A program made the translations under genes and the position numbers. A DNA stretch of 40,482 nucleotides from a virus: IMG/VR virus record IMGVR_UViG_3300045988_118718, positions 1-40,482 of that record; one strand, written 5' to 3'. Positions 2,034 through 33,942 of the stretch are shown here, one piece after another. The notes under the pieces were generated by a model. That model did no database searches. It was not told where the DNA came from and saw nothing but the letters and a program-made list of their open reading frames with translations. Each line of letters opens with the position of its first letter. Position 1 is the first letter of the stretch.

Positions 2034-3253
2034 ATCACCCCCGTAATGTAGTCCATGAATATGGACCAGGAATAAAAATGGGCATCGAATGTATCGATGT
2101 CCGTTGTAAAGTCGTCGAGGATCGCATCCTCATCTTTTTTCGTATCGTATAAAGCGGTACTCAATGCTTCAACAACCATCGGCACTGCCTTGAACTTCAT
2201 TCTGTGCTGATTTAGCAAAAGATTGTAAATCAAGATTCTTGTTTTACCCTCAATCTTTTTACAGTCAATGACCTCCGTGGATAGTCCGGCTTCCCATACC
2301 GCTGTCCGAATGGAGTTTAGCAATACCTGTTCGGCGTTGTCCACGCACACATAGCTTGGATAATACCCCACAGCATTTAAAGCTTTGATAAAGCTCACGG
2401 TTTCCTGGCAAAGCCTATCCGCATCAATCGTACCTTTTGCGTGTACGATCTTGCGCTCCATAAAGGTCGTAAGGTTGTTCCAGTTATTGCTGATGCCGGT
2501 CGCTACCAAAGTACTGTGCGACTTCGTCCCTCCAATATCCAGACCAATATTGACGATCTGGAAGGTTGGAAGCTCCTTCACTTCCCACAACTTAGGATTG
2601 TCGGCAAACTGAGGAAAGAGAAGACCTTCAGCATTGCACCACTCTCCCAAAACGTATCGATTGTAGTACACCGTGCCTCGATACTCATTCTTCAGATTCG
2701 TGACAAAGCTTTCCGGAAGAAATTTGTTATCGTCAAGTGTATATTTCTGACAAAAGATATCCGCATCTGAATCAATGAACCGTTTGAACCAGTGCTTTGG
2801 ATTTTCCGGGTTGCACGTTCCATCGAAACAGGAATACTCTTTATCCAGACGTGACTTCAACATTTCGAAGACTTCCTGGTTCCAGGTCACTACCTCATCA
2901 CCATAGCAGTACGCAATCGACATTCCTCGGATCTTGTTGACCTGTGTTACTTTATCGGCACCCAATGCATAACACCATCGACCGAAAAGTCTGACCTTGT
3001 TATCGTTCTTGATAATCGATACAAGCTTGTCACCGTACATTTCCCGCATCGGATTCAGCACGTTTCGCTCTAAGGTAGCCTGTGTGTTACCCAATAATAA
3101 AACGTCGCCAGGACGTCCCTGGAGTGCTCTGATGCGTTTGGGAATCATGTAGTAATCAAGCCATGTCTTCCCCGATCGTGTAGCTCCGGTCTTAATATTC
3201 CAGCGATGATTGGCATCGGTCCAGAACTCTTTCTGCAGTGGTGTCAGTTTCAC
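2030..3253 (-). CDS. terL: terminase large subunit (PBSX / Terminase_3-like)
   Basis: 407-aa ORF with Walker A-like GATRSGKT near the N-terminus. GTG start preceded by AAGGAGG. Lies between terS and the portal. Confidence 0.9.
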   Translation of the reverse strand: MKLTPLQKEFWTDANHRWNIKTGATRSGKTWLDYYMIPKRIRALQGRPGDVLLLGNTQATLERNVLNPMREMYGDKLVSIIKNDNKVRLFGRWCYALGADKVTQVNKIRGMSIAYCYGDEVVTWNQEVFEMLKSRLDKEYSCFDGTCNPENPKHWFKRFIDSDADIFCQKYTLDDNKFLPESFVTNLKNEYRGTVYYNRYVLGEWCNAEGLLFPQFADNPKLWEVKELPTFQIVNIGLDIGGTKSHSTLVATGISNNWNNLTTFMERKIVHAKGTIDADRLCQETVSFIKALNAVGYYPSYVCVDNAEQVLLNSIRTAVWEAGLSTEVIDCKKIEGKTRILIYNLLLNQHRMKFKAVPMVVEALSTALYDTKKDEDAILDDFTTDIDTFDAHFYSWSIFMDYITGVM

Positions 3254-15242: not shown

Positions 15243-16348
15243 CATAAATAATGTTGGATTAAACAGTATTTTATAAGTACAGAGAAACGAGGTACTTATA
15301 TGTTGATGAATACTAGTTCTGATTTTTTAGTCCCTTCCATTGATGAAAAACTTTGCGCTTATCAAAAAGATCGTATTTCTCAAATGATCCGTGATTATCT
15401 GGAAATCAATCAACAGATGGATCACTTTCATTTCGAATACTGTCCTAAATGTGGTCAACATCATCCCATGCTCGTAAAAGCGGGTAAAACCAAGGCTGGT
15501 AAACAGATGTTGAAATGTAATTCCTGTAAAAAACGCTTTGTATGTGATCATGGTCAGTTGACTTACTATTCTCATCAACCGCAGTCAAAATGGAACGATC
15601 TGATCATCGAAACGCAGAATGGAAATTCGCTGCTTCATACAGCTGCTAAAATCGATGTACATGAATCCACTGCTTTTCGTATGCGTCACAAATATCTTCA
15701 TTTCATTGAAGATATGGAGTGTCCCATATGTGCTACATCATGAAATCGAAATGGATGAAACGTATGTGACACATTGCCGTAAAGGCCGTTTTATCAAAGA
15801 TCATCCCGGCAAGAAGCGGGGTACCCGTGCTTCCAGGGCCGGTTTGTCCGATGAGAAAGTGTGCATAATAACAGCAGTGCAACGCCTGGGAAAATGTATT
15901 GCACGTTCGCTGAATGTATCGAAACCTTCTATAAAAAATGTAGAAGACTTTTGTCAATCCGTTGCCAATAAAAGCTACGTCTGGACAGATGGACTGCAAA
16001 GTTATACAAAGGTCCTCTGTGAAAAGAAATGCACCAACAAAGTTTTGAATACCTACAGTAAATACGATGCAGTCAATCATCTGAACAATGTCAATTCATT
16101 CCATTCAATGATCAAGGAGCAGTATCGGTTTTACCGGGGAGTGTCCAGCAAATACATCAACCGATATAATGCTCTGTTTACATTACAGAAGGAATATCAG
16201 GGAATGGACTCACAAGAATTCCTGTTACTGATTATGAAAAGATTGAGAGGACAAGTTAGTTACTTTTTTATTCGTCAAATACGAAAAGTAGATCTTTTTA
16301 AATTTGCGATTACTTAAAAGGCTATGTCAACAAATTGGAGATTAAGCG
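15216..16348 (+). mobile_element. IS1595-family (ISXO2-like) insertion sequence, 1133 bp
   Basis: 22-bp terminal inverted repeats match at 20 of 22 positions: cgcttaaccttcaatttgttga at 15216..15237 versus the reverse complement of 16327..16348. It is flanked by an 8-bp TSD. It encodes a zinc-ribbon plus DDE (ISXO2-like) transposase. Confidence 0.85.
15300..16317 (+). pseudogene. IS1595-family transposase, interrupted by one frameshift near 15715..15735
   Basis: ORF 15300..15743 carries the zinc ribbon CPKCG…CNSCKKRF and the HTH-like TAFRMRHKY. The +1 frame from about 15730 continues with EIEMDETYV…, the first DDE Asp region. A single indel explains the split. Confidence 0.8.
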
Positions 16349-19046: not shown

Positions 19047-19160
19047 TCGATAAGGGTACTACCAATACCCAGTACATAAAAAGAATGCTCGGCAAGCATA
19101 TTCCTTTTTATGTACCTATCTTAACAAAATTACACCAAAAAAGAAAGGATGGGTACGATT

Positions 19161-20294
19161 ATGTCGGTATTCAAAGATGGAAATTCATGGGCTTATAAAG
19201 GAAAGATCGCTATTCCTTTTGAACCTGGAAAATATAAAAGTTATTACAAAAGAGGATTTTCTAAAAAGAAAGATGCGCAAAGAGCAGAACAATTATTTAG
19301 AGATAATTTTTCTACACATCAGAAAGATATTACTTTCGACGAATTAGTAAATCTATATCGTGCCAACTATCGGACACAGAATGTGAAAGAATCAACTTTA
19401 ATTGGTGATGAAAGCTATTATAGATTGCATATTCAGCCAGTTTTAGGCAAATATCCATTAAGTCAAGTTACTACACAAGCTATTGATTTATGGAAATCCT
19501 ATATGATCAAAAAGCCTAAAACAGAAAGAAAAAAGAATAAAAATGAATATTATTCTACCGCTACAATAAATCATGCTAAAAGTGTGATTAGTAAATACTT
19601 ATCATATGCAGTAAGGCTCGGTTTCATATCTTATAACCCGTGTCATAATGTACCAAGTTATCAAAACAAGGAAGAACTTAAAGAAAAACAAGAAATAAAA
19701 TTCTGGGAAGTCAACGAGTTTAAAACATTTATAGCATCTGTAGATGAAAAACGCTGGAACGATATTTTTACATTTTTATTCTTTACAGGATTACGTGAAT
19801 CAGAAATGTTTGCTTTGTCATGGAGAGACGTCGATTTTCAAAAATGTACTTTGAGAATCAATAAGTCTATTACCTATAAGACAAAAGCGGCTCCCTGGAA
19901 AATAACGACACCTAAGAATGAAAACTCCATTAGGATTATTGATTTGCAGGATACTTTATTAGATCGATTAAAAAATCGTTTAGAAAAAGAAAAACATAAA
20001 GACGGATTCACGCTTGATTATTTTATATTTGGAGATATTAAACCCGTGTCTCGATCTGACTTGGCGCGTAAAATGGATTATTTCATACAGTTATCAGGGG
20101 TTTCACGAATCACACCCCACGGTCTTCGCCATAGTCACGCTTCCTTTTTGATCAAAAGCAAAATTGACGATTCTTTAATTGCTGAAAGATTAGGACATAC
20201 CGTAGCAGAGCTAAGAAAAACTTATGCACATATATATGATTCTATGAGACAAGACATGAAAAGAATATTGGATGAAACATGTAAAATTGAATAA
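19161..20294 (+). CDS. int: tyrosine integrase
   Basis: The C-terminal catalytic motifs are …GLRESE…, HGLRHSHASFLI and LGHTVAELRKTYAHIY. ATG 19161 is preferred because ATG 19149 lies inside the SD AAGGATGG. Confidence 0.9.
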   Translation: MSVFKDGNSWAYKGKIAIPFEPGKYKSYYKRGFSKKKDAQRAEQLFRDNFSTHQKDITFDELVNLYRANYRTQNVKESTLIGDESYYRLHIQPVLGKYPLSQVTTQAIDLWKSYMIKKPKTERKKNKNEYYSTATINHAKSVISKYLSYAVRLGFISYNPCHNVPSYQNKEELKEKQEIKFWEVNEFKTFIASVDEKRWNDIFTFLFFTGLRESEMFALSWRDVDFQKCTLRINKSITYKTKAAPWKITTPKNENSIRIIDLQDTLLDRLKNRLEKEKHKDGFTLDYFIFGDIKPVSRSDLARKMDYFIQLSGVSRITPHGLRHSHASFLIKSKIDDSLIAERLGHTVAELRKTYAHIYDSMRQDMKRILDETCKIE

Positions 20295-20572: not shown

Positions 20573-21244
20573 TTAAATATTAAGCAGCTTCTTAAAAAGC
20601 AACAGTACAATACATATCATCATTGGCAACGCATCTATACTATTTATATATACCTTATTTTGTTCTATTTCTTTAGGTATCAATAAATCATCAACAGGTT
20701 GAATGGATCTAAGTTCCACAGACTTTTGCAATTCTTTTTCTGCCTTTTCTTTTTTCTCCTGCCGGATGCGCTCCTCTTGATCATAGATTTCCTGCACACC
20801 AGAGTATAAATAAAAGCCTACGAATGTTAATCCGTAGGAATCGGGGATATGGTATGCATCTGTAGGACTGAGCCTGTACAATCGCCACATATAACCGCCA
20901 AACGAGCTCATGGATACGTCAATCGAACCATCATCATAACAATGTTCGACTATACCGATATGTCCGCATAGTCGTCCATATGCATCAGTGATGCCGCCTG
21001 AATAAATAATACAGCTTCCAACCTTTGGAGATGGTATCTGTTTCATTTCAGGACGGCTCGCCCACATAATAGCATTTCCACCATAAAATGTAACAGGAGC
21101 GTTACATATCTCTGCTAGTCTGCCCCATGCATAACAAGTACAATTCGGCAGTCCGTAGCCTCTTTGAAAGTAAGGATTGGCACCATAGTACCAATCCCCT
21201 AGATTATCATCGGTTCTACGTTCATTTATCCTAGATGCTGCCAC
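20573..21244 (-). CDS. CHAP-domain peptidoglycan hydrolase with a C-terminal transmembrane anchor
   Basis: Catalytic Cys context LPNCTCYAWGR and His context CGHIGIVEH. A coiled, charged linker precedes a terminal hydrophobic helix LPMMICIVLLLF. GTG start with no SD, overlapping the amidase gene by 14 nt. Confidence 0.8.
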   Translation of the reverse strand: MAASRINERRTDDNLGDWYYGANPYFQRGYGLPNCTCYAWGRLAEICNAPVTFYGGNAIMWASRPEMKQIPSPKVGSCIIYSGGITDAYGRLCGHIGIVEHCYDDGSIDVSMSSFGGYMWRLYRLSPTDAYHIPDSYGLTFVGFYLYSGVQEIYDQEERIRQEKKEKAEKELQKSVELRSIQPVDDLLIPKEIEQNKVYINSIDALPMMICIVLLLFKKLLNI

Positions 21245-22235
21245 CAGATGCCAAAATGTTTATCAACCGCTGTGCCTCGTTGTAGTCAACTCCTAAGCGT
21301 TGTGCTTCGGCTTGCCGAGTTGCTCCTGTTCCGTGCTTGCCCTCGTTCCATACTTCAAGAGCAAATTGACGTGCAGACATAGTAGATCCGGTAGATCCAG
21401 CACCAAGTAAAGCGTTGACTCTAGCCTGTACCGCATTGTAGTTGTAACCTGCAGATGTTAATCGATTGATACGGTCCTGTCCGTTTCCCCATGATCCGGC
21501 GATTACTTCCTTGGCGATCTGATCAATGGATTTTTGTGGAGTTGTACTTGTTCCGACTCCTAACTGTCGATTAACCTCGGCTTGTACCTCAGCATAGTTA
21601 TATCCGGCAGCTTCCAGCTTAGCTTGACGTTCAGCACCATTACCATATTTGCCGGCAATGACATCTCTTGCAACGTCAGCTATAGATTTTGATGGTTGAC
21701 TAGGTTGAGTTGTGCCTCCACTTGGTGCTTGCCCACCATTGACCATCTGGTCATACCATTGCTGCGCTCTCTGGATATATGCATCTTTTTGCGAGCCATA
21801 GATCTGTCCAGGGCAGGCAGTAGCGGCAAAATATTTATGCGGAAATACATTGACCAGCCACTGCGGACGGCCTAATCCAAAATGTTTACAAAGCGCAGCA
21901 ACAAGATGTGCTCCGGCATCTAGGCAAGCCTCTGTGATTGTACCATCTGGTTGATTGGCGTGCTCAATACCAATGGATGTGCAGTTTGCTTCCCAGTTGC
22001 TAGCATGCCATGCTGTATCGCTATCCCATACAAGCTGTCCAGTACGCCCACTCGACTCTACTTGATATTGTGCTGACGCTTCACGTGTTTGCCAAACATT
22101 GTAACATTGTTCGACCGTCAGATCACCTGCGTTATAATGCACAACGAGCATCTTTACTTTTTTACCTGCTCTACCAGGTGTAAAGTGTTTATCTAAAATA
22201 TAGTTAACATCGGCATCTAAAGTTTCATAGTTCAT
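21231..22235 (-). CDS. endolysin: N-acetylmuramoyl-L-alanine amidase (Amidase_2/PGRP) with three CW_7 cell-wall-binding repeats
   Basis: The N-terminal MLVVHYNAG…IGIEHAN motif and three repeats of the type G(K/S)(Y/W)GNG..R...L..AGY.Y..VQ..VN..LG. Confidence 0.9.
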   Translation of the reverse strand: MNYETLDADVNYILDKHFTPGRAGKKVKMLVVHYNAGDLTVEQCYNVWQTREASAQYQVESSGRTGQLVWDSDTAWHASNWEANCTSIGIEHANQPDGTITEACLDAGAHLVAALCKHFGLGRPQWLVNVFPHKYFAATACPGQIYGSQKDAYIQRAQQWYDQMVNGGQAPSGGTTQPSQPSKSIADVARDVIAGKYGNGAERQAKLEAAGYNYAEVQAEVNRQLGVGTSTTPQKSIDQIAKEVIAGSWGNGQDRINRLTSAGYNYNAVQARVNALLGAGSTGSTMSARQFALEVWNEGKHGTGATRQAEAQRLGVDYNEAQRLINILASGGSI

Positions 22236-22351: not shown

Positions 22352-22678
22352 CTATTCTCGAATCGGCAGCTCTTTTAACTCAAGCGCCATCTTCTTCACT
22401 TTTCCATTCCCACCAAGATCCTCATAAGCTTCGGCCATTTCAATTAGATTTTCGTATCCGTGTGGTGTTATTTCCCCACGCTCGATATAGCGGTCATGAT
22501 AATCGATGATTTGTTGCCTCAAAAGACATCGAGTTCCTTTTCGATTGGCTTGTTTTTCAATCTCTTCTCGTTCATCACGCACTTTGGCTTGTTTCCGTAT
22601 ATTTTTTAGCAGCCATACAATGTAACCGCACATGGCGGTTACTATGGATACCACAACCTGGGTAAATAAATCTTCCAT
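22352..22678 (-). CDS. membrane protein of the lysis cassette (holin/antiholin-like, one N-terminal TM)
   Basis: TM helix VVVSIVTAMCGYIVWLL followed by a charged tail. Lies between the holin and the endolysin. Confidence 0.55.
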   Translation of the reverse strand: MEDLFTQVVVSIVTAMCGYIVWLLKNIRKQAKVRDEREEIEKQANRKGTRCLLRQQIIDYHDRYIERGEITPHGYENLIEMAEAYEDLGGNGKVKKMALELKELPIRE

Positions 22679-22679
22679 T

Positions 22680-23018
22680 TTATTCCTCTACAGATGCATT
22701 AAAGCCACCGTTAAATCCATTAACAGCGGCTTCAATTAAAGTTTCTAATTCGGTTGTCGTTACAGTTATTCCTGCATTCGTGAGTAATTCCGATGCTCTG
22801 TCTAAAGCTTTCTGCAGCTTCTCTTCTCCGTGGATATCTTTATAGACCTGTTCGACATATTCTACAGTACTGTTCACAATGTCATACTTGGTTTGATTAT
22901 CCACATACTTATTATATGCTTTTTTGATCTGATATCCTACGACACCAGCCACACACATTAGTACAGTTCCTGCCAGTTGTAAGACCGCCGGCATGATTGT
23001 TTCAATGATTTGTTCCAT
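22680..23018 (-). CDS. holin (LL-H-like)
   Basis: 112 aa with N-terminal TM AVLQLAGTVLMCVAGVVGY and a soluble helical C-terminus. SD is AAAGGAGG. Confidence 0.6.
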   Translation of the reverse strand: MEQIIETIMPAVLQLAGTVLMCVAGVVGYQIKKAYNKYVDNQTKYDIVNSTVEYVEQVYKDIHGEEKLQKALDRASELLTNAGITVTTTELETLIEAAVNGFNGGFNASVEE

Positions 23019-23028
23019 AGATCCTCCT

Positions 23029-23376
23029 TTATTCTATAGTTGCTGTAATTGATGCTAAAAAAGTAACTTCACTTCCATATTTTGGAAAATTAAATATCAG
23101 TTCTTTTCCTCTAATAATCATACTTCCACCAGTAACCACCAAACTAGTTCCTACAAAACCTGTAATTACCGCAATACTTCTTGGATGATAGTATGGTAGT
23201 AATTCACTGAATTCATAGCGATTTCCACCAGAAGAACTTACTGTAATTTCTAGCATATAAGTTACAACATTACCATTTCTTGAATAATCGACTTTCCCTT
23301 TATCTGTTCCAACAGTAAAGTGAAATGTTCCTGTTTCACTTTTCAATTGATTACCATGTCTGTCTATTAGTTGCAT
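23029..23376 (-). CDS. tip cassette 5: paralogous small beta-rich protein (115 aa)
   Basis: N-terminus MQLIDRHGN. No SD. The start codon sits in the loop of a 9-bp hairpin ATTAGTTGC/GCAACTAAT. Confidence 0.65.
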   Translation of the reverse strand: MQLIDRHGNQLKSETGTFHFTVGTDKGKVDYSRNGNVVTYMLEITVSSSGGNRYEFSELLPYYHPRSIAVITGFVGTSLVVTGGSMIIRGKELIFNFPKYGSEVTFLASITATIE

Positions 23377-23397
23377 AAAATCGCAACTAATCTGCTA

Positions 23398-23772
23398 TCA
23401 ACTTCTTTTCGCTACATACATATAATTGATATAGAATACATTCATATATCCACTAAATCCGCTTCCAATATCAACAACTAGATTGTTACCATATACATTG
23501 GCTTTAACGTCACCACTTCCATTACCGGGATATCCGATTGGATAATAATAATTTGGTTGTCCTGTTTTTGCACACCACAAGCAAGAACATGGATGAATGA
23601 AGAAATAATCAAACCCACCTGCACCTATGTTAACTTCCTTGTGCAAACTAGTACCCATATCAATTTGTATATGCTTCATTAAGATAGGTCTACCATCAAC
23701 CCATCTCATGCCTGTATCTTGTTCATTTTGCGAAAAATTCATAACTGCATTTCCAAAACGATCAGTGAACAT
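23398..23772 (-). CDS. tip cassette 4: receptor-binding-head-like protein (124 aa)
   Basis: MFTDRFGN…NEQDTGMRWVDGRPI…, clearly paralogous to cassette 2 along its full length. No SD. Confidence 0.7.
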   Translation of the reverse strand: MFTDRFGNAVMNFSQNEQDTGMRWVDGRPILMKHIQIDMGTSLHKEVNIGAGGFDYFFIHPCSCLWCAKTGQPNYYYPIGYPGNGSGDVKANVYGNNLVVDIGSGFSGYMNVFYINYMYVAKRS

Positions 23773-23791
23773 AAATTCACTAGATAGTGTC

Positions 23792-24091
23792 TTAATGCTT
23801 GTCTAATACGATATATCTAACTTCTAATCCTTGACCTGATACAAAGCTAGTTCCATAAACATTTATTGTTAGAGTAGAACCACTTACAGTTCCTACTACG
23901 TTTACTGGTTGGAAATATGGAGTTCCTGACCTTCCCCATACATTACCTAAAAATATAGCCGTTCCTGTCGGCGCTTTAGGCAATGTTACAGTTCCTGTCA
24001 TAGTATTTCCTTCACTTTGTCTTACAACTAACGTTCCTGTAGCTATTACATCAAAGTCATATAGACTGCTTCCATATCTATCGACTAGCAT
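23792..24091 (-). CDS. tip cassette 3: paralogous small beta-rich protein (99 aa)
   Basis: N-terminus MLVDRYGS, preceded by structured leader B. Confidence 0.7.
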   Translation of the reverse strand: MLVDRYGSSLYDFDVIATGTLVVRQSEGNTMTGTVTLPKAPTGTAIFLGNVWGRSGTPYFQPVNVVGTVSGSTLTINVYGTSFVSGQGLEVRYIVLDKH

Positions 24092-24236
24092 ATTCTCACG
24101 TGGACACTATCTAGCAGTCCACCTTCTTTCAAGTTTGAAGAGTACAAGCAGATTAGTAAATGCTTGCCCCCCCCCGTTTGTTTTGAAGAGTTTTTTCATA
24201 GAGATTGCATATCTCTAATTTTGCACAATGCTTTTC
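24092..24236 (-). promoter_or_regulatory. structured leader B: hairpin, short ORF, G9 tract, hairpin HP1, SD-like box in hairpin HP2
   Basis: On the minus strand: AGAGAT/ATCTCT hairpin (24200..24216); ATG at 24199; G9 (24167..24175); HP1 CAAGCA-N10-TGCTTG (24145..24166); GAAAGAAGGTGG (24119..24130); HP2 GTGGAC-N11-GTCCAC (24100..24122); cassette ATG at 24091. Homologous to leader A. Confidence 0.6.
24167..24175 (-). repeat. homopolymer G9 (C9 on the plus strand)
   Basis: Counted directly. One of only two such tracts that I saw in the window. Confidence 0.95.
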
Positions 24237-24608
24237 TTAGTTCTTCTTGACGTAAAGATAGTAGATATAAAAGACGTTATACCAACCTGAAAAGTTACTT
24301 GCGAGAGATACCTCTAAATTATTGTTATGGATCAAAGCATTAATCTCTTTGCCATAATTCACAGGATAGAAATAATGGTCTGCTCCTACTGAATAACTTT
24401 GTGTGCTCCACAAGCAACTATAAGGGTCAATCCAAACAAAATCATAATCATTGGCTCCAATATCTACAGAACCTTGCAAATTTGTATTTGATAAATCAAT
24501 TCTTTTATAATTTCTATAGATTGGTCTTCCGTCTTGCCATTTTAAACCTGTATCTTGTTCGCCTGTTTCAAACTGTTGAAAAGCGTTTCCAAATCTATCT
24601 ACTAGCAT
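24237..24608 (-). CDS. tip cassette 2: receptor-binding-head-like protein (123 aa)
   Basis: MLVDRFGN…GEQDTGLKWQDGRPIY…. No SD in the 19-nt gap after cassette 1. Confidence 0.7.
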   Translation of the reverse strand: MLVDRFGNAFQQFETGEQDTGLKWQDGRPIYRNYKRIDLSNTNLQGSVDIGANDYDFVWIDPYSCLWSTQSYSVGADHYFYPVNYGKEINALIHNNNLEVSLASNFSGWYNVFYIYYLYVKKN

Positions 24609-24627
24609 AATTGCTAGACAAGGGATG

Positions 24628-25011
24628 TTAGTCTGTCGTTTTGGTATATCTCAAAGTAACAACAAAAGTAACTGGCATTGCGGTTGGCATTGATCCACGA
24701 ATCGCTAAGCCATTTACTTTATTAACGTATGAGGCTTTCCAATCACTTGTGGAAAGATACATATTAACACTTTGATATCCCTCTGAATCGCCTCTGTAAT
24801 AAGCGTATGAATTTGATTCGTCTACCCATATATGACCTGCATTACTTATGCCCAAACTAGATAAACTTTTATTTACACTTATTGTTTTGGAGTTTACTTC
24901 CACCGAAACAGTCTTTGTATAAATAGGTTTTTCGTTTATCCAAAATTCGCCTGTTTCTTGTTCGGTTTCAGATAGGCTTTGAAAAATGTTTCCGTAACGA
25001 TCAACTAACAT
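24628..25011 (-). CDS. tip cassette 1: receptor-binding-head-like protein (127 aa)
   Basis: MLVDRYGN…TEQETGEFWINEKPIY…, preceded by structured leader A. Confidence 0.7.
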   Translation of the reverse strand: MLVDRYGNIFQSLSETEQETGEFWINEKPIYTKTVSVEVNSKTISVNKSLSSLGISNAGHIWVDESNSYAYYRGDSEGYQSVNMYLSTSDWKASYVNKVNGLAIRGSMPTAMPVTFVVTLRYTKTTD

Positions 25012-25123
25012 CTAATCTGGTGTACCTTGCCTAGAAGTACACCACCTTTCTGATAGAGTGTGCAAAAATTAGATAATGCACACCCCCCCCCGATTCAAAA
25101 ATTGAATTTTCATAAGTTCCTCC
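25012..25123 (-). promoter_or_regulatory. structured leader A: strong SD, short ORF, G9 tract, hairpin HP1, SD-like box in hairpin HP2
   Basis: On the minus strand: AAGGAGG (25119..25125); ATG at 25113; G9 (25083..25091); HP1 GTGTGCA-N12-TGCACAC (25058..25083); AGAAAGGTGGTG (25040..25051); HP2 TGGTGTAC-N11-GTACACCA (25018..25044); cassette ATG at 25011. Confidence 0.6.
25083..25091 (-). repeat. homopolymer G9 (C9 on the plus strand)
   Basis: Counted directly. Confidence 0.95.
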
Positions 25124-25630
25124 TTACTGCCAATACACGGCTTCTTTTAAACTTTTTACAGGCTCTGCTACTCGTGTAACACTTGTGATGCTTGTACCTG
25201 TAAATCGAACTTGATATAAAGCAAATTCATCTGTAGTTGCACCTGCCGAGATATCTCCACTAGTTACGCTTGGAGCTACAGGTGTACCCGATGTGGAAGT
25301 TCCTTTTTTTACTGCCAGCGCCATACTTTCAACTTTGGTTGATGTGCTTTTGGTGTAACGACAAACAATCAAATCAATTCGATTCTGACCGCTTACTCCT
25401 GCGCTAAAAGTCACGTTTTCGGTTGTACCTTTTTTAATTCCTCCAAGCGCTCCTTTTTGGATCAAATCACCATCGGCAATACGGACGGTAGTGTTGTTTA
25501 CTACCGTAGCCGCTAACTTCTGACCTGTTCCTAGTACCACCGAATCGCTACCAAAGATACCTCTAATCAATCTACGTTCTTTTTCAGACGTTAAATGAGG
25601 TGTCCCCCTGTACCCTGTGATGATCTCCAT
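25124..25630 (-). CDS. tail fibre/baseplate-associated protein (BppU-N-like fold suspected)
   Basis: 168-aa ORF. Its N-terminal half resembles that of ORF 28008..28631 in pattern (…RIDLIVCRY… versus …RYDYVAIRY…). It is the last gene before the cassette array. Confidence 0.5.
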   Translation of the reverse strand: MEIITGYRGTPHLTSEKERRLIRGIFGSDSVVLGTGQKLAATVVNNTTVRIADGDLIQKGALGGIKKGTTENVTFSAGVSGQNRIDLIVCRYTKSTSTKVESMALAVKKGTSTSGTPVAPSVTSGDISAGATTDEFALYQVRFTGTSITSVTRVAEPVKSLKEAVYWQ

Positions 25631-26298
25631 TAGGCATCAACTTCTTTCCACGGCGCACCGACTGCACCCGGTTCCCAAACGTTGTTATCGGCAGTGGATT
25701 CCCAAGTTTTGCCATTGTGAGTCACCTTATCACCTGTCTTATACCCGTTGGTAGATCCTGGTTGTTCCCATTCTCCAATTTCGCCAGATTGTCCAGGCAA
25801 AACTTTTGCCCACAAGCTTGGTGCATCTGCAGGTGTCCAATCAGCCTGCGCATCATGCGCTTGTAAACATTTGTACAATGTACCGTTATAGGTTACACGT
25901 TCGTCCTTTTCGTAATGCTTAGAGTCGCTCCAAATATCAAACAAGTTCGGTACTAGCACTGCAGTTTCATCGTCCACAGTTCGCGCTTGGATCTTCGCCA
26001 ATGTTATAGCATCGGCATAAGCCTGTGTCTGCGCTTCGGGAGTTTCAGTTGGTTTATACATATTGATTCCGTAGATTTGACCTGTATAAACTTCTAAACT
26101 GTACAACTCCGTGTATCCTTCAACGACTGTTTCTGACTCATTATCATCAACAAATGTCATTTTGCGTGTCTTTAAAGGATCTTTAAAATGTTCTTTGAAT
26201 GTTTCGGGTGTTTCCAAAGTTCGAATATTCAAACGATTATCCTCAAATCCAAAGCATTGGATCGTCATTTCTGACAAATCGTTAAAAATTAGTTTCAT
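25630..26298 (-). CDS. tail-associated protein with two CBM5/12-type carbohydrate-binding motifs
   Basis: YEKDERVTYNGTLYKCLQAHDAQADWTPADAPSLWAKV and YKTGDKVTHNGKTWESTADNNVWEPGAVGAPWKEV fit the W/Y..GD.V.Y.G..Y.C…W.P…LW pattern. Confidence 0.65.
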   Translation of the reverse strand: MKLIFNDLSEMTIQCFGFEDNRLNIRTLETPETFKEHFKDPLKTRKMTFVDDNESETVVEGYTELYSLEVYTGQIYGINMYKPTETPEAQTQAYADAITLAKIQARTVDDETAVLVPNLFDIWSDSKHYEKDERVTYNGTLYKCLQAHDAQADWTPADAPSLWAKVLPGQSGEIGEWEQPGSTNGYKTGDKVTHNGKTWESTADNNVWEPGAVGAPWKEVDA

Positions 26299-28011: not shown

Positions 28012-28631
28012 TCCTTCAGATAGTCATGCATGCTTGTCTTGATTTCGTCAATCTGAAGCTGCAGATTAGCTCCGATATCACCGCTCATCTGATCTTTGAT
28101 CTTATCAAAAAAGGCTGTCCACTGATCCTGGAATCCCTGTGTAGGAATCTTCGATAAAGTATCCACCGTCAATCCACAGAATGTTTCATCCATGCGGACA
28201 TCCATGATATTGTCTTGAGTGATCTCCCCTGCGCTCGCCGGTACAATTACGATTGCCAAGATCAAATCATACTGCGTTTGATTTCGAGTCGGAGCCGATG
28301 GCATTTCGGCTGTACCTTTGACATACACGACCTGTACCTGATTGCTGGACTGTGTGTAGCGGATAGCTACATAGTCATAGCGAGTATAGTATTCAGCCAC
28401 AGGAGCCACCAGGCTAACATCCTGGCGAGGGCAGAAGATTAAACCACCCATTTCATCCTCTTTGGTATGCGTAAAAGCCACACCATTTTTTACAGTTAAA
28501 TTCATTCCAGAGTTTGCCTGTACTTGGAAGTCATTGCCTGTAACATTTAAAATACCGGGTGTTCGCCCGGCATGAAAAAGGCGCATATCCTGCGCCAAGT
28601 AATACGTATCATCTAATGGGAAAGCTGTCAT
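28008..28631 (-). CDS. baseplate/tail structural protein
   Basis: 207-aa ORF coupled to its neighbours by ATGA-type overlaps. Confidence 0.5.
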   Translation of the reverse strand: MTAFPLDDTYYLAQDMRLFHAGRTPGILNVTGNDFQVQANSGMNLTVKNGVAFTHTKEDEMGGLIFCPRQDVSLVAPVAEYYTRYDYVAIRYTQSSNQVQVVYVKGTAEMPSAPTRNQTQYDLILAIVIVPASAGEITQDNIMDVRMDETFCGLTVDTLSKIPTQGFQDQWTAFFDKIKDQMSGDIGANLQLQIDEIKTSMHDYLKE

Positions 28632-29710
28632 GCAGTCACCCCTTTCTTAGCGGATGCTTCCTCCGCATATAGTGTCAATTCTATTTCAATAGTTTCCACA
28701 CCGTCTTCCTCGATCTCATTGATTCCGGATATTCGATACAGTGTGTTCTGAATATTGTATTTGACCGATTCAACCTTTACAATGTCGCCCAAATCATAAT
28801 CAATTCGGAAGCGGAACAAAGGATCGTTTGGATCTACTGTCACCGAGAATTTAACCACTGCTGAATGTTCGGCCAGGGCTTCCAATCCTTCATTACGTAA
28901 GACATTCTGATATTCCTCGTCCGTGTACGTCTGCTCATTGCCGGATTCATCAGTGTACTTTTTAGACGTATTCCGTGAATCCACATACAGCTCATATCGT
29001 TCACCACCATTGGATAAATCGACTTCCACCACGGTTCGTTCTTCGCCTTCCCCCTGTGCACAGACATAGGCAAAATTTTTATAATCCGATAGATCTCTTT
29101 CAACCGATTGAAACGTAATATTTGATAACTTGTCACTGAATTTCACATTTCGTTTTTTGCCACTGTACATTCCAAACTGATTTAAGGCTCCTGGAGATTT
29201 CCCGGCCAACTTATCAGCCAACATTCGGTATCCCAGTCCTGTTTGCTCACAGACAAGCTGCACGGTATCTCTGAGTGTTTCCCATGTAGATTCCATATCC
29301 AGTCCTGTAACCTGAAGTCCCTGTGGATCTGGTGCAAAATAGATATCCAAATTTCGCTGGTTGAATTGTATGCAATCCATAACATCACTTTCTACATTTG
29401 TACCAAAATGCCAGGTGCGAATATTGATACGTTGATCAAGATTATCCATATAGCCGCGGATTTCGATATCGCCCTGCGCTTCATCCTCCGATTCCTCATC
29501 GTGGAAAAAAGACACAAATCCGATTTCCTGTGTAGCCTGGTTTACAAACCTTGTAACACCTTCCTTGATGTTGGCCAGGTTCTCTTTGGTCGGTCGTACA
29601 TGGATCTCAAATTGTCCAGGTTCGGCATATTTCCTTTTCCATTGGATTGACGTATAGTTCTGAAGAATTCCTATTCGCTTACCCTGATCATCAAAAATCA
29701 TCATCTGCAT
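28628..29710 (-). CDS. tail-associated (Tal-like, Sipho_Gp37-like) protein
   Basis: 360 aa directly after Dit. The N-terminus MQMMIFDDQGKRIGILQNYTSIQWKRKYAEPGQFEIHV matches the Gp37-like family as I remember it. Confidence 0.65.
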   Translation of the reverse strand: MQMMIFDDQGKRIGILQNYTSIQWKRKYAEPGQFEIHVRPTKENLANIKEGVTRFVNQATQEIGFVSFFHDEESEDEAQGDIEIRGYMDNLDQRINIRTWHFGTNVESDVMDCIQFNQRNLDIYFAPDPQGLQVTGLDMESTWETLRDTVQLVCEQTGLGYRMLADKLAGKSPGALNQFGMYSGKKRNVKFSDKLSNITFQSVERDLSDYKNFAYVCAQGEGEERTVVEVDLSNGGERYELYVDSRNTSKKYTDESGNEQTYTDEEYQNVLRNEGLEALAEHSAVVKFSVTVDPNDPLFRFRIDYDLGDIVKVESVKYNIQNTLYRISGINEIEEDGVETIEIELTLYAEEASAKKGVTA

Positions 29711-29713
29711 AAG

Positions 29714-30577
29714 CTAAACTCCCGCATACGTGATTGCATATTCGATATCCAATTCCAGACTGTCTAACCCAGAATCCGCATCAAAGCGCAATGGATTTTC
29801 CCCGACATCCAGTTGAAAGAAGGAGGCATCAAAGTCCATATCCGGAAAGGCGTTGATTTCTTCACCATCTCGAATCAGATAACAGTAACAATCGTTAGGA
29901 ATCGTGGAAATCACAAGCTCATCATCGATCTGCATCGTCAACGAAGAAAACTTTAAAACCTCTTGTGTAACGACTTTCAGAAGTTCCGGACCTACCACGG
30001 TATCCTTGGCCACGAATCGAGCCACAAATCCAATCGGTACTGATCCGGAATTGATGATCGTACTCAACTGGTTGATCACTTTCTCCGATATTTTCCATTG
30101 TTCCGTACTGGAAAACGTGTAGGGGAATTTGAACCTTGCCTCATAGCTTACGAAGTTTAGGTATCCTCCATCGATGGCCTTCCAGTAAGGGAAAGCACAG
30201 AACATCGTAAATTGAAAGCTTTGCCAGTATGGATTGGTTGACATATCCGGAGTTTGAGTTGGTACGCCTTCCAGATACACATCAATACCGGCCTGATCAT
30301 CGATGTATCGAATACGAGCCGATACTGTAGGAAGAATGGTATCCAAGATCTTACGGCGTACCGTTGGATCATAACGATATCTACCTTCAAACGTTACGCT
30401 TTTCGGCTGCACTTTTTGACCAGTCAAAGATGCACCAATCTGTCCGGTAGACTGTGCAGAGGATACATCAATATCATTGCTGGATAGACCGTCAATCTGT
30501 ACCAAACGAATCCCTGTCTTCTTGGAGAATTCAACGGTTTGTCCATTCGCGTTTTCATAGATTACTGTTATCCCCAT
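29714..30577 (-). CDS. distal tail protein (Dit)
   Basis: 287 aa immediately after the tape measure, with the typical N-terminal beta-sandwich start (ITVIYENANGQTVEF…). Confidence 0.7.
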   Translation of the reverse strand: MGITVIYENANGQTVEFSKKTGIRLVQIDGLSSNDIDVSSAQSTGQIGASLTGQKVQPKSVTFEGRYRYDPTVRRKILDTILPTVSARIRYIDDQAGIDVYLEGVPTQTPDMSTNPYWQSFQFTMFCAFPYWKAIDGGYLNFVSYEARFKFPYTFSSTEQWKISEKVINQLSTIINSGSVPIGFVARFVAKDTVVGPELLKVVTQEVLKFSSLTMQIDDELVISTIPNDCYCYLIRDGEEINAFPDMDFDASFFQLDVGENPLRFDADSGLDSLELDIEYAITYAGV

Positions 30578-33500
30578 TTCTGCCTCCTTTGCATTTTCTG
30601 TGCTTCTCTTGCCATTTCAGACGGCCTCAATACTTTGGCACTGTTGACCGTTTGTTGGAAGTTATTGGTCGTCTGATTGACAACCGATGACCCAGCACCG
30701 GCATACTGTAGATTGTTGCTTAATACGCGACCTGCAGTATTCGAACTGATGATATCCTGCATCTTGGTCTTTAGGCCTTTTACACGGGATACTATTTTTG
30801 ATTCTGCTTTTAGCATGGCAGCCGTAAAGCTATCAGTCATGACTCTAGGTAATCCGCTCATTGTATCTTCCATCGTCTGATACATCGCATGACCCATATC
30901 ATCTACAGTATATTTTGCCGCCATGACCGGTAGATTTGCATTGTCTAAAATACCTTTCTCAAGGCCAGCCATTGCCCACATACCGTTTTCTGTTGTGGTT
31001 TTCCACGGTGATCCTTCACCGCCGGTTTCACGTATTTTGGCCAACGTTTGATTTACTACATTGGCTGCTGCTGTCAATGCTAAGCCAACACCACCAGAAA
31101 TGCCTCGTGCAAAACCAGCTGTAAGGTTATAACCAGAGTCATAAGCATTGCCACTGCCTAAGCCACTGACTGCAGTATTACTAACTTGTGTAGCACTTGT
31201 TTTAACAGCAGGTTCTCCTTCTTTTATACCTTTGCCAAGACTTTCAGAATTCTTTTTACCCTGTTGTTTTAATTCTGATTCTGCTTCAGCGCCTTCAATC
31301 ATGAGCTGCTTAATTTGTTCAATAGCATCAGCCGGCAAAATAGATCCATCAGATACACCTTGTGCCAAATCGGCCGGTACTTCTATACCAGCCTCTTCCG
31401 CTTTGGCCAACAAGTCATTGAATGTCATGATATCGGTCATCATCTGTACTGCCTGTTGTGGCTGATATTGACCACTCAGAATTCCATTAGATAGCCATTG
31501 TGGTACCTGTTGACCGGCGGCAGAGGATTCCTTCAGCAAATCATTAAAAGAGATCCATGCATTCATCTGTGCAACTGCCTGGCTTGGTAATAATTCACCT
31601 GTTTTAATTCCTTCAGTAATTGATTCAGGCACATTATATCCGGCATCTGTAGCCTGTTGACGTAAAGTGTCATAATTGACTAATGCTGTCATTTCTTCCA
31701 CTGATTCCGGTAAAGCGTATTGCCCTTCCTGGATTCCCTGTGTAATGGCTTCCGGGACCTCCACACCGGCTGCACGTGCGCCTTCGACTAACTCATTCAT
31801 CTTCTGTTTGAGCGTTTCGGTATCAAGAGCCTCATTGATTTTATCGCCCCAGGCATCCATCTCATCGGTCAGCCCATTCACTTCGTCTTGATAATCCGAT
31901 AACGTGTCTTTGGACTCTTTTAATGTTTGGTCAGCACCTTGAACATTTAATCTCGCTTTATCCAAAGCATTTGCTAATTCATTTTGGTTCGATGCATTTT
32001 CTTTTACTGCTTTGTTGTAAGCTTCCTGCGCCTCGTTAAGCTCCTTATGAGCCTTCTCTGAAGCTTTGGCATTTGTAGCTACTTGGTCTTCGGCATCTGC
32101 TAGATCCATTTGTGCTTGTGCTAAATCTTCGGCTGTTGATATCATATTTTCCTGATAAGCTTTGGCCATGATCATATCTTTCGAAGCTGATATATAGTTT
32201 CGTATCTCTTGTGTAGACATACTTAACTTATTCGCTTCTTCGTCATACTGTAGATTCAATCCCGGCATCAGCTCATTCAGTTTATCTACATATCCTGTCA
32301 TCAATTGTTTTTCTGCATTTGATAGCTGTTCTTTATTAGCCAATTCTTCTATTTTGGATGCCATTGTCTCGGCCACTGCCGATTCCGCTTGTGCGCTTTC
32401 TATGTTAGCCTCACGAGTTTCTCGGTTTTGTTCCATTTGCTCTCGCAGTTCTTCATATTTTTGGCGCATCTCTTCTGTGGCTACTGCATTTTCATCTTCT
32501 GCTTTTGCAGTTTCAATCAGATTTCCCACATAAGATACTAAAGCAATTCCTGCACCGGCGATCAATCCTGCCAACAAGCCCCATGCAGATCCCTTTTGAG
32601 CAATATTCAAAGCCTTTTGCGCAGTCTCTGCAGCTTTCGTTCCTTTTGTAAACACCGTAAGGGCTGCATTTGCTGTTTTGGTTGCTGCAGCTCCTAACAG
32701 AGCGGATGATTTATACATGATAAATGCAGTACCGGCACCTTTCATAACCGAAGTTAGTTCTTCGCCATGATCGATGCAGAACTGCAAGGCATCCACCACC
32801 GTATCCATTGCATCTTCAGCTGTTTTGCCAAATCCATCCCAGTCAACTTCTTTGATCATATCCTGCATGGCTCCGGATGCTTTATCCACTGCCGGTTTTA
32901 AAGCATTCAAAGCATTTGCTTTCAGATCATTCATTTCCGTCTTTAATGGGGTAACGGAACTTGCTAGATTGGCCTGCGCATCTTTCAAACGCAGTTCGGA
33001 TGCATTCAAATCTAAAGTACTTTGTGATAGTTCATCATACGTCTGTTTGGATTGACCAAACGTCTGATTCAATGTCTGTGCAATCAGATCCGCACGCTCC
33101 TGTGTGTCGGCACATGCCGCCAATGCAGCGCTGTAGGCATCTTCCTGTGTTTCTCCATCAGCAATCGCTTTATTAAAAGCTTTCTGCGCCTCTGTGTGTC
33201 CTGCCATAGCTGCCGACCAATCTTCGTTAGACCGTCTGGCCCAGTTGATGGCATCGGCCAAAGTACCTGTTACATGTGCAACCTGTGCCGATTCGTTCAT
33301 CGATTCGGTCAAAGATTCAATCGGAATACTATCACCATAAGCCGACCATACACCAATGGCAGCACTTGCAGATGCACTAACGGTATCGGTAGATACCTTC
33401 ATACCTAGTAAGTTTGTAATAGCGTTGGTCGCCATCTGATCATCACCTAAGTATTTATAAAATTCCTGATACTGCCCTTTGGCATAGTCCACAGAGTATC

Positions 33501-33942
33501 CAAATGTCGTAGCTGATCCGGACAACTTTGCCTGCATCGTACTGTATTCGGATGTGGCATCGATTAAATCAAACAGACTTCCGGCTAAACTTCCTACTTT
33601 ACCGATAACCGTCTGAATCACACTTGATCCAAGATCGGCCAGGATACCTTTGAATACTGTAAATCCCTGTGTAGCTGGCTTGGTCTGCTCCGGAAGTCTA
33701 TCCATTCCATTTCCAAGACCTTCGATATCATCCTGTGCCTGCTGTGCAGACTGCTTTAATTCATCAAGACTTCCGGATGCTCTGGATGCACCTTTGGCCA
33801 TATCATCAAAATCGGCACCATCGAGGCTCTTTTTGGCTGTATCGCCAAGGTCTTCAATCTTCTTTTCCGATTCACTGACCTTTTTATTCACATCTGTATT
33901 GTCAAGATCAATCTTGATGCTTACAGATCCCTGATTTGCCAT
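30568..33942 (-). CDS. tail tape measure protein
   Basis: 1124 aa, Ala/Gln/Glu-rich and helical, with a hydrophobic central segment and internal repeats, following the two chaperone-position genes. Confidence 0.9.
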   Translation of the reverse strand: MANQGSVSIKIDLDNTDVNKKVSESEKKIEDLGDTAKKSLDGADFDDMAKGASRASGSLDELKQSAQQAQDDIEGLGNGMDRLPEQTKPATQGFTVFKGILADLGSSVIQTVIGKVGSLAGSLFDLIDATSEYSTMQAKLSGSATTFGYSVDYAKGQYQEFYKYLGDDQMATNAITNLLGMKVSTDTVSASASAAIGVWSAYGDSIPIESLTESMNESAQVAHVTGTLADAINWARRSNEDWSAAMAGHTEAQKAFNKAIADGETQEDAYSAALAACADTQERADLIAQTLNQTFGQSKQTYDELSQSTLDLNASELRLKDAQANLASSVTPLKTEMNDLKANALNALKPAVDKASGAMQDMIKEVDWDGFGKTAEDAMDTVVDALQFCIDHGEELTSVMKGAGTAFIMYKSSALLGAAATKTANAALTVFTKGTKAAETAQKALNIAQKGSAWGLLAGLIAGAGIALVSYVGNLIETAKAEDENAVATEEMRQKYEELREQMEQNRETREANIESAQAESAVAETMASKIEELANKEQLSNAEKQLMTGYVDKLNELMPGLNLQYDEEANKLSMSTQEIRNYISASKDMIMAKAYQENMISTAEDLAQAQMDLADAEDQVATNAKASEKAHKELNEAQEAYNKAVKENASNQNELANALDKARLNVQGADQTLKESKDTLSDYQDEVNGLTDEMDAWGDKINEALDTETLKQKMNELVEGARAAGVEVPEAITQGIQEGQYALPESVEEMTALVNYDTLRQQATDAGYNVPESITEGIKTGELLPSQAVAQMNAWISFNDLLKESSAAGQQVPQWLSNGILSGQYQPQQAVQMMTDIMTFNDLLAKAEEAGIEVPADLAQGVSDGSILPADAIEQIKQLMIEGAEAESELKQQGKKNSESLGKGIKEGEPAVKTSATQVSNTAVSGLGSGNAYDSGYNLTAGFARGISGGVGLALTAAANVVNQTLAKIRETGGEGSPWKTTTENGMWAMAGLEKGILDNANLPVMAAKYTVDDMGHAMYQTMEDTMSGLPRVMTDSFTAAMLKAESKIVSRVKGLKTKMQDIISSNTAGRVLSNNLQYAGAGSSVVNQTTNNFQQTVNSAKVLRPSEMAREAQKMQRRQKWG
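31300..31780 (-). repeat. about four tandem repeats of roughly 38-40 aa within the tape measure (AG..VP..I..GI..G…P..AV..M……FNDLL)
   Basis: Read from the translation. Coordinates are approximate. Confidence 0.6.

Follow-up and report, generated by a model that had tools for sequence, protein, structure and literature searches.

The window analysed here, a stretch of 40,482 nucleotides (nt) of viral DNA (IMG/VR record IMGVR_UViG_3300045988_118718), is the ~40-kb genome of a temperate siphophage from the human gut. Between ORF168, an open reading frame (ORF) for a protein of the distal tail, and the holin gene, the genome carries five consecutive ORFs, all on the minus strand, which we call cassettes c1-c5 and whose lengths, place and N-termini are those given in a preliminary description made from the sequence letters (Table 1). 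From c1 to c5, these ORFs begin with MLVDRYGN, MLVDRFGN, MLVDRYGS, MFTDRFGN and MQLIDRHGN. A six-frame translation of the window contains the pattern M.{1,4}DR[YFH]G five times, compared with a mean of 0.05 (maximum 1) in 200 shuffled versions. The codons behind this motif vary: arginine is written CGT, AGA, CGA or CGC, glycine GGA, GGT, GGG or GGC, and the tyrosine or phenylalanine TAC, TAT or TTT. Because this variation is synonymous, the tag is conserved as protein.

As judged from its homologues, ORF168 is the constant N-terminal domain (N-domain) of a protein family that is normally made as one polypeptide. It matches three PHROG profiles (~294-319 positions) at profile positions 1-163 only. 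Homologues with 36-45% identity are 255-293 amino acids (aa) long, and those with 68-96% identity are 168-173 aa long. We surveyed 66 IMG/VR loci encoding ORF168 relatives, counting lengths for complete ORFs. Nearly all were 257-332 aa (one has 582 aa, and that of L068 ends early, at 117 aa), and the ~170-aa form was restricted to the two closest loci (L006 and L007). In the long forms, the conserved N-domain leads through a short helical segment into a C-terminal region, which is entirely different between phages with near-identical N-domains. An AlphaFold2 (AF2) model of one fused relative, P0009 (mean predicted local distance difference test (pLDDT) score of 70), places a beta N-domain at residues 40-151, a helix at 158-178 and a beta-sandwich head at 180-268. 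The family plan read from these proteins is thus N-domain, helical neck and hypervariable head, which in the model is the layout of a modular receptor-binding protein (RBP). In this phage and its close relatives, the gene stops after the N-domain, and the C-terminal tail that remains (PV.S...A.Y) is invariant across the split clade.

Some fused relatives carry an invertible alternative head (L028 5480-6332, L023 5480-6332 and L019 5480-6231). This head is encoded by a promoterless ORF that lies immediately downstream of the fused gene, runs on the other strand and has its start within neck sequence (SNKVAELNKNITS...). Inverted repeats of 45-48 nt, located in the sequence coding for the neck, bound it, and L023 and L028 form a pair of inversion isomers. 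The switch resembles the Mu G-segment or a Rin-type switch. Read from these genes, one protein family holds three solutions, in which the head is single and fused, invertible, or split off as several heads in tandem.

Table 1 Features of the cassette locus and of the surrounding genome (window coordinates)
Feature	Position	Strand	Remarks
ORF168	25124-25630	-	Constant N-terminal domain (putative anchor/shoulder); stop where relatives run on into neck and head
Long spacer I	25012-25123	-	112 nt; SD, leader ORF, poly-G, hairpin 1, SD-like GAAAGGTGG, hairpin 2, 7 nt, c1 ATG
Leader ORF I	25069-25113	-	MKIQFLNRGGVCII, then stop; AGGAGG in front
Poly-G tract I	25083-25091	-	G9 on coding strand
Hairpin 1, spacer I	25059-25082	-	TGTGCA-loop-TGCACA; loop TAA closes one leader frame
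Hairpin 2, spacer I	25019-25043	-	GGTGTAC-loop-GTACACC; CTAG in loop
Cassette c1	24628-25011	-	127 aa; family A; TGE.WI..KPIYTKT...LRYTKTTD, fibre-tip type
Start hairpin c2	24602-24617	-	Slot 2 arms, left CTAGCA, right TGCTAG, around ATG; MARLT variant, left TAGTCTT, right AAGACTA
Cassette c2	24237-24608	-	123 aa; family A
Long spacer II	24092-24236	-	145 nt; paralogue of spacer I; repeat family D5
Leader ORF II	24107-24199	-	MKKLFKTNGGGQAFTNLLVLFKLERRWTAR, then stop
Poly-G tract II	24167-24175	-	G9 in window; G6-G12 in relatives
Hairpin 1, spacer II	24145-24166	-	CAAGCA-loop-TGCTTG
Hairpin 2, spacer II	24100-24122	-	GTGGAC-loop-GTCCAC; loop CTAG supplies TAG ending leader II in window
Cassette c3	23792-24091	-	99 aa; family D
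Start hairpin c4	23761-23785	-	ATC-T-AGTGAA / TTCACT-GAT, ATG in loop; slot 4 arms, left AGTGAA, right TTCACT; MKFT variant, left GTGAATTT, right AAGTTCAC
Cassette c4	23398-23772	-	124 aa; family A; slot-4-type MFTDR start
Start hairpin c5	23366-23391	-	Slot 5 arms, left ATTAGTTGC, right GCAACTAAT
Cassette c5	23029-23376	-	115 aa; family B
Terminase	2030-3253
Integrase (phage)	19149-20294
Two lysins	20573-22235
Holins	22352-23018		Phage_holin_6_1 holin at 22680-23018, adjoins c5
CBM5/12 protein	25630-26298		222 aa
262-aa and 121-aa fibre-like proteins	Upstream
Tape measure protein, Dit, Tal	28628-33942		Tape measure protein 1124 aa, assigned by size and position
SD, Shine-Dalgarno sequence.

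Cassette bodies and their kinship with fibre tips and heads

The cassettes had been described as five paralogues, and only c1, c2 and c4 proved to belong to one family. Behind the ~12 N-terminal residues that are all the families have in common, the five bodies fall into three unrelated families. Within family A, c2 and c4 are the close paralogues they were taken for (44-47% identity), and c1 is a distant member (22-24% identity; E about 1e-5); the block E-Q-(E/D)-T-G..W..P-I reported for these three is present. The second, looser type proposed for c3 and c5 dissolved, as neither BLASTP nor hhalign gave any similarity of these two to each other or to c1, c2 and c4 past the first ~12 residues. 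Between cassette families, hhalign aligned 12 columns only for B-D and A-B and found no body-level relation apart from D-G and a partial B-F match. None of the five cassettes matched Pfam or PHROG, and a search against PDB sequences returned nothing except a resemblance of c3 to antibody Fab heavy chains (phmmer E = 0.007-0.2). There, YGSSLYDFDV..GTLV mimics the third heavy-chain complementarity-determining region (CDR-H3)/J segment, and we judged the match to be chance.

Family A is, by its profile matches, a widespread C-terminal tip domain of phage fibres. An exhaustive search with the family A profile recovered 308 representative clusters at E of 1e-3 or better, with the domain mostly at the extreme C-terminus of longer proteins (140-500 aa and up; for example, residues 303-417 of 419 and 407-513 of 515). 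Its hosts include a tail fibre with Collar and Gp10_C domains and proteins with Phage_fiber_rpt (Pfam 'Phage tail fiber repeat'). Among the latter are proteins of 165-179 aa with Phage_fiber_rpt as their N-terminal part; c2 shares 50-54% identity with their C-terminal two-thirds. Three fibres (P0084, P0114 and P0169) end in the same domain as c1 and share its terminus, '...LRYTKTTD'. The family A pattern TG..W.DGKPIY...YTKTTD has no Pfam entry. Structure prediction followed by Foldseek, a check named in the preliminary description, was carried out on c2. Its AF2 model (pLDDT 89.6) is a beta-sandwich at residues 18-121 with a low-confidence helix at 3-15 over the shared motif, and its fold matches in BFVD are phage fibre-like proteins, several of them annotated as tail fibres (E to 4e-5, template-modelling (TM) score 0.46-0.57).

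Family A tips also end the 165-179-aa proteins encoded at ~4668-5540 in contigs of phi29-like gut podophages (L082-L085, 16-18 kb). These proteins combine Phage_fiber_rpt with a conserved MENYQGN..YNLLED N-terminus, and a second fibre-repeat gene of 103-104 aa lies alongside, both genes standing between the capsid and tail genes. The fibre-repeat proteins of these contigs could be head fibres.

The other two bodies are more remote. Family D, represented by c3, resembles a family found in a sister array, G (hhalign, 94.8%; 94 columns). Family G in turn aligns to the head (residues 177-250) of the fused ORF168 homologue in L066 (E 7e-6). The match of c3 itself to L066 is weak (E 0.11), and c3 thus appears linked to the heads of fused relatives indirectly, via family G. 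Family E, which occurs in sister arrays, matches the heads of fused relatives at E of about 1e-9. Homologues of c5 are confined to the same arrays, and the identical c5 protein occurs on 51 contigs. Head homology therefore covers three to four of the five cassettes: the suggestion that these ORFs are head domains detached from a shaft stands for c1, c2 and c4, which correspond to fibre C-termini, holds indirectly for c3 and finds no link in c5.

These matches also bear on a different role for the cassettes, as accessory proteins: fibre-assembly chaperones or caps, or proteins of lysogenic conversion or superinfection exclusion. Small variable genes 3' of fibre genes are often chaperones (Tfa, gp38, Mu U), the tail-lysis junction is a common moron site, and both the missing fibre link of c5 and the lack of Pfam and PHROG matches would suit such proteins. 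We nevertheless consider this role improbable, since the family A domain is an integral C-terminal domain of fibres and not a partner gene, families E and G match integral heads of fused relatives, and unrelated bodies with one tag fit a common attachment site better than five different chaperones. No signal peptides or transmembrane segments were evident on inspection of the sequences, and no cassette showed Tfa/gp38-like chaperone similarity in the Pfam, PHROG or PDB sequence searches.

Slots, exchangeable bodies and selection

The comparison took in 18 split loci, namely the window, L001-L007 and L072-L081, of which 17 have a readable array, together with the fragments L086 and L087. Cassette number and order, which the preliminary description had proposed to compare among relatives, are variable: the 17 arrays hold 3-5 cassettes each and are mosaics of bodies that fall into 7 families and 23 subtypes, and the bodies of the split clade include at least four unrelated families. 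Ten loci retrieved via the identical c5 still differ at slots 1-4.

The spacer in front of a cassette and the first 2-5 codons are specific to the slot and independent of the body. Whichever family follows, slot 4 always starts with MFTDR or MKFTDR, and slot 5 with MQLIDR or a close variant. Subtype C9 is found in two different slots (slot 5, L001; slot 2, L076), with nucleotide identity from the motif codons GAT-AGA-TAC-GG to the stop codon and unrelated sequence on both flanks, boundaries that define the exchangeable unit as motif-to-stop. Such an exchange has left a scar in the window: the spacer behind c4 (23377-23397) contains TAGCAGATTAG, the last codons and stop (..A D stop) of a family B cassette in sister arrays. 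This remnant, 11 nt of a family B 3' end, shows that c4 replaced a family B body. An integron-like array was considered and rejected, as the junctions are slot-specific and do not travel with the bodies, and no IntI-like gene was present among the scanned ORFs.

The two fragments show altered arrays. In L086 (3262-3357), a spacer I/II hybrid is joined within or beside the poly-G tract, slots 1-2 are lost and a family D cassette directly follows the N-domain. In L087, a 2-kb fragment, only the first 5 and the last ~10 codons of a family D cassette (1767-1966) survive.

Every cassette is intact in the arrays with good coverage (the window, L001-L007 and L072-L081). For orthologous cassette pairs, limited to those with enough divergence, the ratio of nonsynonymous to synonymous substitution rates (dN/dS) was 0.11-0.37, slots lacking a Shine-Dalgarno (SD) sequence included. 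No terminators were predicted in the cassette region, and promoter-like sites were not above expectation there. Purifying selection together with the lack of terminators makes silent or decaying cassettes unlikely. The earlier suggestion that some cassettes are silent is not borne out, and the missing SD sequences are explained by a coupling layout described below.

In its strongest form, silence would mean a reservoir of mostly unexpressed heads that are recombined into an expression position, by pilE/pilS-type conversion or a direct-repeat shufflon, with one head made at a time. Several features agree with such a reservoir: bodies move between slots and between phages with breakpoints at motif and stop, deletions occur between repeated spacers (L086), relatives use a true invertible silent head, and slots 2, 4 and 5 have no SD. 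We nonetheless regard it as very unlikely. There is no expression site, ORF168 ending in a stop and having no homology to the cassette 5' ends; each cassette has its own ATG; the cassettes are intact and under purifying selection apart from the one remnant in L087; and the slot-specific junctions stay behind when bodies move, unlike attC sites. Nor does the window contain inverted crossover repeats (weak inverted repeats of 74-83% only). Pfam scans of 30 window ORFs, with some small ORFs outside the scan, found the phage integrase as the only site-specific recombinase and no invertase, the hits of this kind being the integrase and an IS1595-type DDE domain.

Putative docking of separate heads on a constant anchor

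Taking gene order, homology and exchange together, we think it probable that the locus encodes a split multi-head RBP, with separate heads docking through the N-terminal tag. An ancestral one-piece RBP would have been split, with ORF168 staying on the baseplate. The heads would be made separately, and the octapeptide tag, probably with the short helix that follows it, would dock on the conserved tail of ORF168. Attachment would probably be as trimers, rebuilding the neck non-covalently, and several different heads could be displayed per virion or per burst. Docking through the N-terminal peptide is plausible because the motif is conserved at the protein level and present only where the N-domain is split: motif-tagged ORFs were found downstream of split N-domains only and never in fused loci. 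We also looked for covariation of the ORF168 tail with motif position 8 and discarded it; the basic tail of L004 with E/E/D fits, and L007 breaks the pattern.

Several findings weigh against this reading. All split loci form one clade (N-domain 68-96% identical) that shares other distal tail genes. The co-occurrence of tag and split therefore counts as one evolutionary event and, with the whole distal-tail gene set shared, cannot single out ORF168 as the docking partner. ORF168 has no T4gp10-like branching domain (no Gp10 or Collar in Pfam; Foldseek of a fused relative not significant). Foldseek searches against PDB gave no significant match for c2 (best E 0.03, TM 0.38) or for the fused P0009 (phi812 baseplate, E 0.008; lactococcal p2 RBP (2bsd), E 0.057/TM 0.29), and the top names from these two queries (adenovirus fibre head, p2 RBP and phi812 baseplate) are suggestive only. 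A profile of the ORF168 family had no match among PDB sequences. Among the bodies, c5 has no detectable relation to any fibre or head, its homologue search having returned only c5 itself. The family A tip occurs, in addition, in the short fibre-repeat proteins beside the capsid gene of phi29-like gut phages, and it may for this reason be a general fibre tip and not a primary receptor binder.

The heads could also be present in the virion and docked elsewhere, on the CBM5/12 protein, on the 262-aa or 121-aa fibre-like proteins or on Dit/Tal, with ORF168 merely a head-less baseplate protein. The distal-tail gene set common to all split loci does not discriminate between these partners, and the lack of a recognisable branching domain in ORF168 leaves room for them. 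This arrangement seems unlikely to us, however, as N-domain followed by heads is the domain order of the fused relatives, families E and G are homologous to heads covalently joined to the same N-domain in those relatives, and the tail that ends the split N-domain does not vary within the clade.

By analogy, the functionally closest known systems to a split RBP with docked heads are the adapter/branch multi-RBP systems of podo- and myophages, namely those of K1-5/K1E/SP6 (gp37 adapter), KP32/KP34/K11, G7C (gp66/gp63.1), Menlow and the PhiK64-1 groups (PMC6872550, PMC13352976). Docking via 7-11-residue N-terminal peptides has been experimentally validated in podophages (PMC6872550, PMC13352976). 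Shared with these systems are adjacent RBP genes with unrelated bodies, a short N-terminal peptide that is conserved (of 7-11 residues in K1-5/KP34 and of 8 residues in this array, with M-x-x-D-R-(Y/F/H)-G in all cassettes), a separate constant anchor protein and modular swapping of bodies behind the peptide. Unlike them, the present locus belongs to a temperate siphophage of gut Clostridia type, with up to five RBPs in tandem that are bare heads of 99-128 aa, compared with tailspikes or depolymerases of 600-1200 aa. Its anchor has no detectable T4gp10-like branching domain and visibly derives from the splitting of a fused RBP; the peptide sequence is unrelated, and the interaction is here a putative one.

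Invertible tail-fibre switches and shufflons combine constant N-terminal with variable C-terminal parts (Mu Gin, P1 Cin, p15B Min and bifidophage Rin; PMC6109161). The likeness lies in a constant N-terminal RBP part followed by dissimilar alternative heads (Rc/Rv logic). In the window, by contrast, the heads are co-oriented and each carries a separate start codon and tag, ORF168 ends in a stop, and joining would be post-translational and not by DNA inversion. Lactococcal p2 ORF18, with its shoulder, neck and head and its head swapping, resembles the three-part plan and hypervariable head of the fused relatives; it differs in that no significant sequence or fold match links the two and that in known phages the parts are one polypeptide.

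As for its genomic setting, the window resembles a complete, circularly permuted genome, running from packaging genes on the left through integrase and lysis genes in the middle to head genes on the right, and it also carries replication genes. Its terminase is 42-56% identical to those of phages of Ruminococcus gnavus, Flavonifractor, Faecalibacterium and Butyrivibrio, and a protein identical to c2 was found on a 40,554-bp contig. In the lysogeny region, a plus-strand ORF (15619-16317) encodes an IS1595/ISXO2-type DDE transposase domain (E 8e-16) and neighbours a Cro/C1-type repressor and an ImmA-like peptidase. A GTDB genome scan with the split N-domain alignment as query gave no confirmed locus, neither megablast with the locus nor tblastn with c2 matched any GenBank phage, and Rfam on 22900-25800 gave a chance-level match only.

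Leader ORFs, poly-G tracts and start hairpins

The stop-to-start gaps before c2, c4 and c5 measure 19, 19 and 21 nt and have no SD, in agreement with the preliminary description. At slots 2, 4 and 5, pairing between the spacer and codons 2-4 of the cassette behind it forms a 6-9-bp hairpin with the ATG in the loop or at its edge, and the arms differ by slot and by variant while the pairing is kept. Stop-start distances of 10-25 nt together with these start hairpins suggest the standard layout of termination-reinitiation coupling.

Longer gaps precede c1 (112 nt) and c3 (145 nt). They are paralogous structured elements containing a leader ORF and a poly-G tract, which the preliminary description had missed. 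Both long spacers have the same order of elements: leader ORF, poly-G, hairpin 1, SD-like GAAAG(G/A)AGGTGG, hairpin 2, 7-8 nt and ATG. Spacer I is conserved wherever the junction from N-domain to first cassette is covered (in L086, as the spacer I/II hybrid). The leaders start with MKIQFLNRGG... behind AGGAGG in spacer I and with MKKLFKTNGGG... in spacer II. The ATG and SD of leader I are conserved in all loci, and the position of its stop is set by poly-G length. Hairpins 1 and 2 keep their pairing via double changes between spacers I and II and between loci, as in L007/L074, where a double change has turned an A-U pair of spacer I's hairpin 2 into C-G.

Apart from the two poly-G tracts, which are polymorphic, the 40-kb window has no G/C run of 7 or more. 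Tract I is G8 or G9 in the 18 tabulated arrays and G7 in L087, and otherwise identical spacers differ in tract length alone (G10/G11/G12, G9/G10 and G8/G9). Each reading frame of the leader has its own end: one stops at a conserved TAA in the hairpin-1 loop, 55-61 nt upstream of the cassette ATG; another at a conserved TAG in the hairpin-2 loop, 15-18 nt upstream; and the third at ATGyTAG, 7 nt into the cassette. All three states were found among natural loci. The window has leader I in the early-stop state and leader II in the hairpin-2 state.

With this layout, the poly-G leaders are possible phase-variable gates of two cassette blocks (slots 1-2 and slots 3-5). Translation may run as a coupled chain, in which slots 2, 4 and 5 would re-initiate 10-25 nt past the prior stop, each at an ATG that has no SD and sits within a small hairpin. 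Slots 1 and 3 stand behind leaders with hypermutable poly-G, and tract length, by setting the place of the leader stop, might gate the two sub-blocks. Taken further, the locus could be a recombinase-free phase-variable host-range device, a 'translational shufflon' with separate heads on one anchor and poly-G slippage choosing sub-blocks stochastically, as each tract would shift the leader stop relative to the hairpin that masks the cassette start. We put this forward tentatively and hold it to be doubtful.

Part of the evidence speaks against such control. The start hairpins are modestly stable (z -1.8 to -2.5), and 9 of 44 other gene starts in the window also fold some hairpin in a loose test; the case for the start hairpins thus rests on conservation and compensatory change and not on stability. 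Leader II has no clear SD, and the poly-G lengths come from metagenome assemblies, in which sequencing error could partly account for the differences.

The long spacers also raise the question of whether ORF168 and a cassette are joined by recoding, through readthrough, poly-G frameshifting or ribosome hopping over the spacer. A slippery G-run directly before a stable hairpin would be apt for this, as would structured gaps of ~110-145 nt exactly where the fused relatives have the neck. Such joining is nonetheless scarcely credible: all three frames are closed between the ORF168 stop and the c1 ATG, including a TAG directly before the ATG; the leader has its own SD and ATG; c2, c4 and c5 are out of reach; and the same element precedes c3, far from ORF168.

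If gating of separately made heads does operate here, it would invite comparison with contingency loci. Hypermutable poly-G tracts in RBP genes are reported for Campylobacter phages (Sorensen et al. 2021 Cell Rep 35:109214, as cited in PMC10877375), and T2/T4 contingency loci have been discussed (PMC12633550). Common to these loci and the present one are long G-runs tied to receptor-binding genes and differing in length between otherwise identical genomes. The known tracts lie inside the affected gene, whereas those described here lie in upstream leader ORFs with two hairpins, and the switch would act by translational coupling and not by protein truncation. The preliminary description had named no described system with this layout. 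Peptide-anchor multi-RBP systems and shufflons have been described (PMC6872550, PMC13352976, PMC6109161), and in this respect it was only half right; it holds for the particular layout, as the organisation of slots, hairpins and poly-G is unusual and we found no description of it in the literature.

Should docking through the tag prove true, the locus would amount to a plug-and-play RBP system that arose naturally in a temperate siphophage infecting gut anaerobes, in which a minimal anchor of ~170 aa and an 8-residue tag accept heads of unrelated fold and only about 100 aa. It would show three evolutionary solutions within one protein family, explain how such prophages track diverse or changing host surfaces, and offer a very compact rule for redesigning the host range of phages whose hosts are hard-to-target gut Firmicutes. 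The leaders with their poly-G tracts and hairpins, if they act as proposed, would allow phase-variable adsorption without touching the RBP reading frame. Under a translational shufflon, each burst would be a mixture of virions with different receptor-binding repertoires.

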